Source: a virus
Taxonomy: Duplodnaviria > Heunggongvirae > Uroviricota > Caudoviricetes
Virus record (IMG/VR): IMGVR_UViG_2602041905_000001
Strand: one strand, 5' to 3'
Length of the DNA stretch: 4,370 nucleotides
Part shown: positions 2,076 to 4,342 of the stretch, piece after piece
Position numbering within the stretch: position 1 is the first letter of the stretch
Layout: the number at the start of each line of letters is the position of its first letter
Translations under genes and position numbers: made by a program
The notes under the pieces: generated by a model
The model's input: only the letters and a program-made list of their open reading frames with translations
Told to the model about the DNA's origin: nothing
Database searches by the model: none

Positions 2076-2599
2076 CTATCAAATCAAATACGCCAGCACA
2101 CGACAAGGACTGCTGGCAAACGCCGCTTTGGCTTTTTGATGCACTGGATATTGAGTTTGGATTCTGGCTGGATTCGGCAGCGAGCGACAAAAATGCTCTG
2201 TGCGCTCACTGGCTAACTGAGGACGACGACGCGCTCAATTCTGAGTGGGTAAGCCACGGTGCAATCTGGAATAACCCACCGTACAGCAATATCAGGCCGT
2301 GGGTGGAAAAAGCCGCTGAGCAGTGTATACAACAGCGACAGACGGTAGTGATGCTTGTGCCAGAGGATATGTCTGTCGGATGGTTCAGCAAGGCTCTGGA
2401 GAGTGTTGACGAAGTTCGTATTATCACTGATGGACGGATTAATTTTATCGAACCATCGACAGGGCTGGAGAAGAAGGGAAACAGCAAAGGCTCCATGCTG
2501 CTGATTTGGCGACCGTTCATCAGTCCTCGACGGATGTTTACTACCGTATCCAAAGCGGCATTGATGGCGATCGGGCAGGGCGTCAGGAGGGCTGCATGA
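2072..2599 (+). CDS. Phage DNA N6-adenine methyltransferase (small Dam-family orphan MTase), occupying the lambda ninC position
   Basis: 175-aa ORF from ATG at 2072 ([25 protein letters not shown]...). It contains the catalytic NPPY motif (IWNNPPYSN) typical of N6-adenine methyltransferases and resembles the small Dam proteins of lambdoid prophages. The start in the ORF track (2012) falls inside ninB and is unlikely. The stop overlaps the ninE ATG (ATGA at 2596-2599). Confidence 0.8.
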
Positions 2600-2772
2600 G
2601 ACGACAGCGACGAAGCATCACCGACATAATCTGCGAAAACTGCAAATACCTTCCAACGAAACGCTCCAGAAATAAACGCAAGCTAATCCCAAAAGAATCT
2701 GACGTAAAAACCTTCAATTACACAGCCCACCTGTGGGATATCCGGTGGCTAAGATATCGTGCGAGGAAATGA
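2596..2772 (+). CDS. ninE: NinE
   Basis: 58-aa ORF from ATG at 2596, with AGGAGG 5 nt upstream: [58 protein letters not shown]. It matches lambda/DLP12 NinE as recalled. The ORF track extends it 5' into the methyltransferase gene, which is unlikely. Confidence 0.8.
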
Positions 2773-2774
2773 CA

Positions 2775-3116
2775 ATGGATTATTCACAGTTAAGTGATTT
2801 TGAAATTAACAGAATGGTAGGAGACATAATTTTTAAAGGCCTTTGGGCAAGTAAACCGGAAACATCAGGGAATAACACCAACAAATGGTATTACGGAAAT
2901 GCTGATACAACTTTTGAGCCATTAAATCATTTGCCTGACTACTGCAATGATCCGAGCGCTTCATGGCCGATTATTGAGAAATACAGGATTTCTATCTTAG
3001 ACCAGTTAACTGAATGGTGTGTGGATGCAAAAGGCGTAAGCCCAATATTTGATACCAGACCTCTCCGCGCCGCCATGATTGTCTTTCTCCTGATGCAGGA
3101 GGCCAATAATGCTTAG
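2775..3116 (+). CDS. NinX-like (DUF2591-like) nin-region protein of unknown function
   Basis: Open frame ending at TAG 3114-3116. ATG at 2775 has GAGGA 7 nt upstream; the alternative ATG at 2769 forms an ATGA overlap with the ninE stop. The protein is [24 protein letters not shown]...LLMQEANNA. Its position between ninE and ninF matches the P22-type ninE-ninX-ninF order; the family assignment is from memory and unverified. The region is visibly AT-richer than the O-P-ren-ninB block. Confidence 0.6.
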
Positions 3117-3303
3117 CCCATCTCAATCCCTTCAATACCTGAAAGAAAGCATAGAGCGGGCTTCAATGTGCACAGAGTGGATTCTATCTAGGTTTAGCGC
3201 ATACAGAAGATTGCCGGTAAAGGGCATGCCAAGCAAGTCGATGCTGCATATGCAAAAGAATGCGCGCTGGAAGGTATGGCGAGAACACAGGTTATGTGGC
3301 TGA
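3109..3303 (+). CDS. Short ORF with a NinF-like N-terminus ([10 protein letters not shown]...) whose 3' half reads through a ybcO remnant in another frame; possibly a chimeric or degenerate gene
   Basis: ATG at 3109 with a strong AGGAGG ribosome-binding site 7 nt upstream. The first ~18 aa resemble the lambda NinF N-terminus as recalled, but the rest ([21 protein letters not shown]...) lacks the Cys-rich motif I remember in NinF and overlaps the out-of-frame ybcO tail. Confidence 0.45.
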
Positions 3304-3326
3304 AAGAGGGGGTTATTAAGGCGTGA
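3240..3326 (+). pseudogene. ybcO: 3' remnant of a ybcO-like (DUF1364) gene: the last ~28 codons only, with no start codon
   Basis: The frame ending at TGA 3324-3326 encodes ...[28 protein letters not shown], matching the C-terminus of K-12 YbcO as recalled. Upstream, the same frame hits a TAG at 3195-3197 and shows no YbcO-like sequence or plausible start. Confidence 0.45.
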
Positions 3327-3685
3327 ATACCTACAGCATCACATTACCCTGGCCTCCGAGCAATAATCGCTATTACCGCCATAATCGCGGGCGCACGCAC
3401 GTCAGCGCAGAGGGGCAGGCATACCGCGATAACGTCGCCCGAATCATTAAAAACGCAATGCTGGATATCGGCCTGGCTATGCCTGTGAAAATCCGCATTG
3501 AGTGCCACATGCCGGATCGCCGTCGCCGTGACCTGGATAATCTGCAAAAAGCCGCTTTTGACGCACTCACTAAAGCAGGTTTCTGGCTGGATGATGCTCA
3601 GGTCGTTGATTACCGCGTTGTGAAGATGCCTGTTACCAAAGGTGGGAGGCTGGAACTGACCATCACCGAAATGGGGAATGAATGA
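3323..3685 (+). CDS. rusA: Crossover junction endodeoxyribonuclease RusA (Holliday junction resolvase)
   Basis: 120-aa ORF starting at GTG 3323, which overlaps the ybcO-frame stop as GTGA, with AGAGGGGG upstream. The protein [48 protein letters not shown]...[11 protein letters not shown] matches E. coli DLP12 RusA as recalled. Confidence 0.9.
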
Positions 3686-3822
3686 TGTTTGAGTTTAATA
3701 TGGCAGAACTTCTTCGCCACCGCTGGGGGCGTCTGCGCTTATATCGTTTCCTCGGTTCTGTTTTGACCGATTACCGAATACTGAAGAATTACGCCAAAAC
3801 CCTGACAGGAACAGGAGTATGA
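3682..3822 (+). CDS. ylcG: YlcG-like small protein (46 aa); not present in the supplied ORF track
   Basis: ATG at 3682 overlaps the rusA stop (ATGA), followed by a second ATG; stop TGA at 3820-3822. The translation [46 protein letters not shown] matches DLP12 YlcG as recalled. It lies in the conserved position between rusA and Q. Confidence 0.6.
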
Positions 3823-3907
3823 AGTCAGAGATAACAATCAACTAATACTGTTTTGTTGATTTTTGCTTGTAATTGGCGTTCTGGTCTGATTTTTGTGGAG
3901 TAAGTTG

Positions 3908-4291
3908 ATGCGTGATATTCAGATGGTTCTTGAGCGTTGGGGTGCGTGGGCGGCTAATAATCATGAAGATGTGACCTGGTCGTCCATTGCCGCCGGTTTT
4001 AAGGGATTAATTCCTTCAAAAGTAAAATCTCGCCCGCAATGTTGTGACGATGACGCGATGATCATTTGCGGGTGCATGGCCCGTCTGAAAAAGAACAACA
4101 GCGATTTACACGATTTATTAGTAGATTATTATGTATGTGGTATGACATTCATGTCACTGGCAAGTAAGCATTGCTGCTCGGATGGTTATATCGGGAAAAG
4201 GTTACAGAAGGCTGAGGGCATAATTGAAGGGATGTTAATGGCATTAGATATCCGGTTAGATATGGATATCGTTGCTAATAATTCTAATTGA
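3908..4291 (+). CDS. Q: Late-gene antitermination protein Q (short DLP12 quuD-type allele)
   Basis: 127-aa ORF from ATG 3908 with GGAG 7 nt upstream: [49 protein letters not shown]...DIVANNSN. It matches K-12 QuuD as recalled. The GTG at 3893 used in the ORF track is less likely given the ribosome-binding site spacing. Confidence 0.85.
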
Positions 4292-4311
4292 TATGCAATT
4301 GTTTACTAAAA

Positions 4312-4342
4312 GTTATTAAAAATGGGGCGTGGAAACGCCCCC
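4312..4342 (-). terminator. Intrinsic terminator hairpin oriented for minus-strand transcription (convergent on the Q 3' end)
   Basis: Seen directly: a 7-bp stem GGGGCGT (4324-4330) / ACGCCCC (4335-4341) with a GGAA tetraloop. On the minus strand the hairpin is followed by ATTTTTAATAA. On the plus strand it is followed by CAAAATAAA, with no U-tract, so it is a poor terminator for Q. Confidence 0.5.

Follow-up and report, generated by a model that had tools for sequence, protein, structure and literature searches.

In lambda, the nin genes lie on the N-antiterminated pR transcript and all of those tested are dispensable once Q is supplied (PMC10695390), and the functions of nin genes are described as "largely unknown" in the phage L paper (PMC8022706). 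The type gene of the ninX family comes from phage P22 (protein NP_059615), and phage L carries a homologue; both proteins belong to the Pfam family PF10765 (Phage_P22_NinX/DUF2591), and both are encoded between ninE and ninF. Here we examine the ninX gene of a 4,370-nucleotide (nt) stretch of viral DNA (IMG/VR record IMGVR_UViG_2602041905_000001), referred to hereafter as the window, which is the delayed-early right arm of a lambdoid phage or prophage. This ninX (positions 2775-3116, plus strand) sits in the same ninE-ninF slot, and its product shares 61% amino acid (aa) identity with P22 NinX, from which it differs by one exchanged internal cassette, and 96.5% identity with the NinX of phage L. 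As a gene and as a family, ninX was already known, and the copy in the window is a common allele and an ordinary occurrence. We find that two hypervariable cassettes of NinX are exchanged almost independently of each other while the scaffold that holds them stays fixed, and that variation within a cassette type is constrained.

Membership of the open reading frame (ORF) in the NinX/DUF2591 family is virtually certain. The window protein scores 62.1 bits against PF10765 (E 7.4e-17; cut-off 22.6) in an alignment that joins its residues 2-108 to profile positions 1-114 of 114, and it matches phrog_444, a group annotated as function unknown, at E 7.6e-44; NCBIfam gave no match for it. The family's motifs are present at residues 1-12 (M-D/N-Y-x-x-[LM]-S-D-x-E-I-N), 55-67 (D-Y-C-N-N-P-x-D-A-W-P-I-I), 81 (the conserved strand-2 Trp) and 95-105; where the consensus reads NPxDAW, the window protein has DPSASW. 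The gene lies between ninE and ninF, as the type gene does, and shares identical junction sequences with P22, so that the description NinX-like, given by an earlier reading of the letters alone (the sequence-only reading), is confirmed. From 2500 to 3400 the window is 100% identical to Escherichia phages ev207, ev017, PhiR57_1 and PhiR63_2, in which the ORF is labeled "Phage NinX", "NinX protein" or "DUF2591 family protein", and the window protein is 100% identical to the annotated NinX of ev207, ev017 and PhiR57_1. The ORF is far beyond chance and represents a real, constrained protein: an exhaustive profile search returned 1,854 clusters at 50% identity (1,175 with E up to 1e-10), a protein database clustered at 90% yielded 930 matches, the ratio of nonsynonymous to synonymous polymorphism (pN/pS) across 21 close alleles is ~0.19 for the whole gene, and at least 80% of this allele is found, with the ORF intact, in 607 of 5,426 complete E. 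coli genomes (~11%).

A conservation profile of 134 representatives, with mutual identity of at most ~50%, revealed strong conservation at residues 1-16, at residues 54-73 together with W81, and at residues 95-108. The two segments between them vary in length (22-60 aa and 13-31 aa) and show essentially no conservation. On the plus strand of the window these stretches correspond to conserved block 1 (2775-2822; residues 1-16, comprising the N-terminus and the start of helix 1), hypervariable cassette 1 (2823-2933; residues 17-53), conserved block 2 (2934-2993; residues 54-73, comprising a loop, helix 2 and strand 1), hypervariable cassette 2 (2994-3056; residues 74-94, which include the conserved W81) and conserved block 3 (3057-3113; residues 95-113, the C-terminal helix). 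In the wider member set, cassette 1 shrinks to a minimum of ~13-14 aa. Conserved block 2 is the recombination joint between the two cassettes.

To describe reassortment, the two segments were clustered separately at 60% identity among 267 non-identical members. This yielded 148 cassette-1 types and 151 cassette-2 types in 202 combinations, counts that show extensive reassortment and not its frequency because the sample is biased to the cassettes of the query. The cassette-1 type of the window is joined to 29 cassette-2 partner types, and its cassette-2 type to 21 cassette-1 partner types that range from 13 to 54 residues in length. Among the IMG/VR loci, at least three unrelated C-terminal modules occur behind the N-terminal module of the window, whose own C-terminal module also occurs behind a different N-terminal module. 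Consistent with exchange at fixed positions, partial matches in E. coli genomes stop at nt 36-37 or at nt 202 of ninX, which are edges of the conserved protein blocks. Within its type, cassette 1 has a pN/pS of 0.14 (small counts), and this purifying selection argues that it is not simply junk.

A further picture of this exchange came from aligning the ninE-ninX-ninF segment of the window with lambda and P22. In lambda there is no ninX and ninE directly abuts ninF, whereas the insertion and its junctions are common to P22 and the window. Identity to P22 is 100% in the first 42 nt around the ninX start and 94.8% in the last 155 nt, but the 149 nt between them (2812-2960, approximately residues 13-62) are unrelated (38.6% identity), with a guanine-plus-cytosine (GC) content of 40% compared to 51% in P22. 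Because the gene is absent from lambda, keeps the ends found in P22 and has had its middle exchanged, ninX is a mosaic insert that is internally mosaic as well. The separate ancestry proposed by the sequence-only reading agrees with this alignment, and the lower GC content on which that proposal drew was also found, as ninX (2775-3116) has 40.6% GC compared to 45-53% in ninE, dam, ninF and rusA and 48.9% in the window overall; 342-nt windows with GC as low as that of ninX or lower make up 5.7%. Other parts of the window are AT-rich, including the Q gene (42.6% GC) and the 3' end (~36%, below ninX). Within ninX, GC content is 26% in the first 42 nt, 40% in the internal cassette and 44.5% in the 3' part.

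NinX is a soluble, acidic, single-domain alpha/beta protein of 113 aa. The AlphaFold2 model, built from a 48-sequence alignment (predicted local distance difference test (pLDDT) 83.8; predicted template modeling score 0.77), contains a helix at residues 8-19, a low-confidence insert at 20-55, a helix at 60-69, three strands at 73-76, 81-84 and 91-93, and a final helix at 96-112. A natural 96-aa member (P0104), in which the first insert is reduced to ~14 residues, has the same core and a pLDDT of 88.6. Helices begin with capping-type motifs (S-D-x-E, N-P-x-D and N-P-L-R), which by helix-capping rules are probably structural. We saw no signal peptide or membrane span in the NinX sequence, the hydrophobic run in the last helix (~10 residues) lies within the predicted core, and the product is predicted to carry neither.

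Crystal structures of the NinX family already exist, namely 4PUP, from Burkholderia cenocepacia J2315, and 4QYB, which has nearly the same sequence; both were deposited as "Uncharacterized protein". Since profiles of enterobacterial NinX proteins matched no PDB sequence, 4pup included, a bridge was built through Burkholderia phage JC1, whose gp38 is listed as DUF2591-superfamily (PMC9144972). JC1 gp38 scores 66.7 bits on PF10765 and matches 4pup_A and 4qyb_A over its full length at E ~1e-11, and the 4pup sequence, taken from this alignment, itself scores 59.6 bits on PF10765; it is this bridge and this score that place the structures in the family. When the alignment of 134 representatives was compared to JC1 gp38 with hhalign, the central block alone was aligned (67% probability). 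The AlphaFold2 model agrees with the crystal structures: in a Foldseek search of PDB that gave no significant match, the sole whole-chain match was 4pup_C, with a template modeling (TM) score of 0.62/0.61 over 119 columns and a weak E of 0.75, and because of this weak E the fold assignment rests on the TM-score and the sequence bridge. The model of the 96-aa minimal member gave no better PDB match (best TM 0.36). 4PUP is ~26% identical to the window NinX, from which it differs in its inserts and in lacking C57, R98 and the MDYS N-terminus, and the two share the hydrophobic core residues V15, W64, I66, L97, A100 and M101.

Relatives of the same fold were also found among the predicted structures in BFVD. 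All seven Foldseek matches with E up to 1e-3 come from phages (Edwardsiella, Rheinheimera and others) and are either uncharacterised or unnamed; weaker matches include a DUF2591 protein of a Pseudomonas phage and a protein of an Escherichia myovirus. Models from Edwardsiella PEi21, Rheinheimera Barba31A, Escherichia vB_EcoM_WFC and Pseudomonas ZC03 (DUF2591) share the fold with a Foldseek probability of 1.0 and TM scores of 0.54-0.75; these proteins, at 18-28% identity, come from myoviruses and other non-lambdoid phages and are all annotated as function unknown. The search for a characterised family through Foldseek (PDB and BFVD) and through PDB sequence and profile comparisons thus returned only uncharacterised relatives, and the clear match to a characterised family that would have refuted the sequence-only reading did not appear. 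The view of that reading that the function of NinX-type proteins is uncharacterised holds, as a full-text literature search on NinX/DUF2591 yielded mentions in genome annotations and no functional study; structurally, however, the family has been studied, since 4PUP and 4QYB exist. PF18066 (Phage ABA sandwich) has similar helices and a three-stranded sheet, and two of the 134 family members matched it marginally (E 0.099); the window NinX itself did not, and the link is too weak for a claim of relationship.

Turning to individual residues, a deep alignment was assembled from the members in Sergei, BUCT610, Yersinia, Aeromonas, Vibrio, phiWec179 and JC1 phages together with 4pup. Only V15, W64, I66, L97, A100 and M101 are invariant, with L97, A100 and M101 kept even in the Burkholderia branch, and I67, I72, W81, P96 and A99 are nearly invariant. 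All of these positions are hydrophobic or structural. As no polar residue is conserved family-wide, a shared catalytic site is unlikely, and no catalytic motif was found in NinX by Pfam, NCBIfam or the deep alignment, as the sequence-only reading had noted from inspection. The family is also uniformly acidic (median isoelectric point (pI) 4.74; median net charge -7.2; pI below 5.5 in 86% of members and above 7 in 1%), which makes nucleic-acid binding unlikely.

Several resemblances were considered and rejected. Residues 60-112 follow the alpha-beta-beta-beta-alpha order of double-stranded RNA-binding domains (dsRBDs) and HicA-like domains, but query-normalised TM scores to the Dicer dsRBD, the third dsRBD of ADAR1 and the S. 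pneumoniae toxin-antitoxin structure 5yrz are 0.23-0.28 with E above 1. The N-terminal QLSDF resembles the beta-clamp-binding motif QL[SD]LF, but other family members do not keep Q5, and these residues cap a predicted helix. Among known anti-defence proteins, the general PDB Foldseek lists, which are not a dedicated library, contained only Acb4 (9e4w; TM 0.28, E 1.5), a likeness we reject because the TM score is at most 0.28; this outcome argues against close relatives only.

NinX is distributed well beyond lambdoid phages. By tblastn, the family is present in 599 of 50,697 phage records (Vibrio 331, Salmonella 95, Escherichia 76, Klebsiella 35, and others), and some of the carriers are virulent or non-lambdoid. 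Loci from the IMG/VR scan were, with few exceptions, near-identical copies in lambdoids, so that the range of contexts was not widened. In lambdoid genomes ninX is flanked by ninE and ninF; in the Yersinia myovirus vB_YenM_29.18 it lies between ninB and rusA, near a NinI phosphatase gene; in Salmonella phage Sergei it follows a DNA polymerase gene, in the company of nucleoside deoxyribosyltransferase and DNA methylase genes; and in a Vibrio phage the neighbors are dUTPase and DUF4406 genes. In Klebsiella BUCT610 and Citrobacter K1M, the tape-measure and major-tail genes flank a small island, transcribed divergently, that encodes NinX; phiWec179 and Aeromonas phiA019 carry it in long arrays of small early genes (in phiA019 ahead of a primase/helicase gene); and the homologue in JC1, gp38, which mass spectrometry of the virion did not detect (PMC9144972), lies upstream of the terminase gene. 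No fixed partner gene was found across 11 different phage contexts, and their common denominator is an island of small accessory genes.

Within the siphovirus islands, the block set against the tail genes consists of five short genes (BUCT610, 3065-4313; K1M, 2861-3942), and that of K1M includes a DUF551 protein, which also adjoins NinX in an E. coli prophage. Some family members are joined to other sequences. One (P0131) has a C-terminal extension with two CxxC pairs (CTFCDGNG...CPQCEGKC) and is probably the single sequence among the 134 representatives with a match to the DnaJ CXXCXGXG zinc-finger model (E 8e-4). It may have arisen by natural fusion to a small zinc-finger gene lying downstream, or it may be an artefact of read-through. 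Similar fusions with neighboring genes (NinE, DUF1364 and PF11134) occur in P0003, P0030 and P0033.

These observations suggest a model for the role of NinX. Inserted as a mosaic segment into the delayed-early rightward (pR) operon, where ninE and ninF flank it, ninX would be transcribed with the nin genes after N-antitermination and, like other nin genes, would be dispensable for plaque formation. The protein would work stoichiometrically through partner binding and not through catalysis, and we regard it as fairly probable that NinX is a non-enzymatic binder. In this model the conserved hydrophobic core is the scaffold on which the two cassettes are displayed. The cassettes are candidate specificity surfaces that differ strongly among alleles, are constrained inside each allele type and are swapped by recombination at the conserved blocks. 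The likeliest arena would be phage-host or phage-phage conflict, which is the most speculative step; here NinX may either neutralise a host factor that varies, for example a defence protein, or escape being recognised by one. We hold a conflict or counter-defence role to be possible and somewhat unlikely. In its most specific form, the model casts NinX as a phage 'display scaffold', a conserved alpha/beta core with two exchangeable specificity cassettes, of which hundreds of types are shuffled at conserved joints and each combination neutralises or escapes a different variable component of host immunity; in this form it is distinctly unlikely. Blending family identity, binding and conflict role, we arrive at an overall best explanation that is tentative, a little short of an even balance. 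The anti-defence or host-modulation function suggested by the sequence-only reading is speculation with which the evidence is compatible.

A number of points weigh against this model. The literature searched contained no partner, phenotype or expression datum for any family member, and for this reason we infer the binding and conflict steps; likewise, no family in PADLOC-DB, which holds defence proteins only, was matched at E up to 1. AlphaFold2 confidence in cassette 1 is low (pLDDT 54-63), and the hypervariable loops could simply be tolerant of change. The cassette counts carry an ascertainment bias, in that resemblance to this allele was the basis for gathering homologues, which therefore have one or both cassettes in common with it, and the pN/pS values derive from few substitutions (at most ~18 differences per pair), with zero synonymous differences in cassette 2. 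The window NinX itself, with a net charge of ~-6 on 113 aa, is only moderately acidic.

In the main rival reading, NinX is a modulator of host takeover or physiology whose conserved helices bind a conserved host protein, and the loops are merely tolerated, play no part in specificity and are shuffled only by frequent lambdoid recombination. The persistence of the three blocks from Escherichia to Vibrio, Aeromonas and Burkholderia phages would fit such a target, as would the reduction of cassette 1 to ~14 aa with the predicted fold kept and the coincidence of the mosaic joints with the conserved blocks. However, the residues conserved family-wide form a hydrophobic core with no obvious polar interface, cassette 1 is under purifying selection within its type, and the hosts span several orders of Gammaproteobacteria as well as Burkholderiales (Betaproteobacteria), so that a single target would have to be very conserved; we place this reading on the unlikely side, as a serious contender. 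Quite unlikely is a role for NinX as an accessory of the phage recombination or replication machinery, acting with NinB/Orf and RusA/Rap. Its gene lies between ninB-dam-ninE and ninF-rusA in the window and between ninB and rusA in vB_YenM_29.18, and the polymerase and primase/helicase genes that adjoin it in Sergei and phiA019 point the same way. Against this stand the acidity of the protein, which makes DNA binding unlikely, the positions away from recombination genes in the T1-like tail-module island and upstream of the JC1 terminase gene, and the lack of a fixed co-occurring partner gene. In addition, lambda recombines normally without ninX, and ninR recombination maps to orf and rap.

That NinX mimics DNA as an anti-restriction protein, like Ocr or ArdA, is suggested by the acidity of the family, by its early expression context and by the DNA methyltransferase genes that adjoin it in the window and in Sergei. 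We consider this very unlikely, as a net charge of ~-6 to -7 is far under that of classic mimics, the Foldseek lists contained no likeness to Ocr, ArdA or other mimics, and hypervariable cassettes are unexpected in a protein that imitates an invariant DNA shape. Even less probable, and largely refuted, is an enzyme, such as a thiol-dependent or thioredoxin-like oxidoreductase acting through C57 or W81-C82. This idea drew on weak phmmer matches of this allele to thioredoxins (E 0.04-1.8), among them matches to thioredoxin f (E 0.04-0.2) over residues 59-106 around a 'TQWC'-like stretch, and on C57 and R98, which are invariant and nearly so, respectively, in the enterobacterial alignment and were considered as a catalytic Cys/Arg pair. 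Yet the thioredoxin matches are specific to the cassette 2 of this allele, in which C82 itself lies, there is no CxxC, family profiles miss thioredoxins, and Foldseek TM scores to thioredoxin domains are 0.14-0.18; the conservation of the Cys/Arg pair is confined to the enterobacterial branch, with replacements in the Sergei and Burkholderia members (C57 by T, W or F and R98 by V or I in deep branches). Finally, the search for direct expression data found none, as might be expected were the ORF a non-functional or unexpressed remnant, a reading to which we give almost no credence in view of the Pfam and PHROG matches, the 1,854 clusters, the constraint on the whole gene, its intactness in E. 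coli genomes, the well-placed Shine-Dalgarno sequence and the overlaps with both neighbors.

The family is a large blind spot, with at least 1,854 clusters, 599 carrier records and two crystal structures and no assigned function. To this our analysis adds that catalysis is unlikely, that the cassettes reassort independently and are constrained within type, and that natural minimal forms and swaps are at hand as controls, three points that open the family to experiment; it also adds the link to 4PUP and 4QYB. Were the cassettes specificity determinants, the family would be a sizeable addition to the repertoire of phage-host conflict; if they are not, NinX is another dispensable nin gene. On the display-scaffold reading, DUF2591 would comprise many modular proteins, so far unrecognised as such, that serve in counter-defence or as decoys in lambdoid, T1-like, Jersey-like, rV5-like, T5-like and Burkholderia phages.

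With regard to the boundaries of ninX in the window, the reading frame runs uninterrupted from 2733 up to its TAG stop (3114-3116) and offers four in-frame starts: GTG 2733, GTG 2745, ATG 2769 and ATG 2775. Database entries differ in their choice, with GTG 2745 in the RefSeq record of ev207, the ATG equivalent to 2769 in the P22 record, and a length of 113 aa, as expected from ATG 2775, in the commonest protein cluster (710 member sequences). We favor ATG 2775 on sequence grounds, because a Shine-Dalgarno-like GAGGAA (2763-2768, plus strand), read from the sequence, lies 6 nt upstream of it and because most aligned family members, those of unrelated phages included, start with M-(D/N)-Y at the equivalent Met; some members have one or two additional residues ahead of it. 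GAGGAA directly abuts ATG 2769, too close to serve that codon, and is also kept at the 3' end of ninE in P22 and lambda. The product has 113 aa from 2775 and 115 aa from 2769, the two lengths that the sequence-only reading had bracketed.

The ninE stop (TGA, 2770-2772) overlaps the alternative ATG 2769 in an ATGA (2769-2772, plus strand), a junction described in nin regions, where tight packing of genes is typical (PMC8022706). Downstream, ninX and the ninF-like gene, which starts at ATG 3109, overlap by 8 nt (3109-3116, plus strand), which points to co-transcription and probable translational coupling. In and around ninX (2400-3500) we found neither an excess of promoter-like sequences nor an intrinsic terminator, nor any Rfam family, and ninX is therefore probably read through with its neighbors; the terminator annotated in phage L is on the opposite strand. 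Minus-strand ORFs of 43-55 aa within ninX are without support.

The gene order of the window was established from the ORF listing, Pfam scans and the RefSeq annotation of the identical phage ev207. It begins with the 3' end of O, followed by P (519-1274; PF06992), a ren-like ORF (1271-1561; 96 aa), ninB (ending at 2075; PF05772), a Dam-type N6-adenine methyltransferase gene (2072-2599; PF05869, E 3.7e-65), ninE (2596-2772, plus strand; PF05322, E 1.8e-41), ninX, the ninF-like gene (3109-3303, plus strand), rusA (3323-3685; PF05866), a ylcG-like ORF (3682-3822; 46 aa) and Q (3893-4291; PF06530). The ren-like and ylcG-like ORFs have no Pfam or PADLOC match and take their names from the ev207 annotation only. 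The upstream neighbor, ninE, which defines the insertion slot of ninX, is ~95% identical in nt sequence to P22 ninE and is also similar to lambda ninE. Between ninB and ninE, the slot that holds ninC and ninD in lambda holds the Dam-family methyltransferase gene here; DNA methylase genes are also near NinX in Sergei, an association with NinX that is anecdotal.

Directly 3' of ninX, the ninF-like gene presents a further intragenic mosaic joint. Only its first ~21 residues are in common with the NinF of lambda and P22, and the rest is unrelated (44.6% nt identity to P22), with no CxxC...CxxCC cysteine pattern of NinF and no Pfam match. In the intergenic region between ren and ninB (1527-1616), an Rfam scan gave a weak match to Trp_leader, at 21.5 bits against a gathering threshold of 41 (E 0.54), which is almost certainly chance. 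Lastly, gene P contains a run of 10 N (642-651) between exact 44-nt direct duplicates (598-641 = 652-695), which repeat 14 codons (DEKPQVQQVAQIIN). The N-run and duplication do not look biological but as if overlapping contig ends had been joined during scaffolding or assembly, and because of this assembly-type duplication (598-695) the ORF of P is artificially lengthened.

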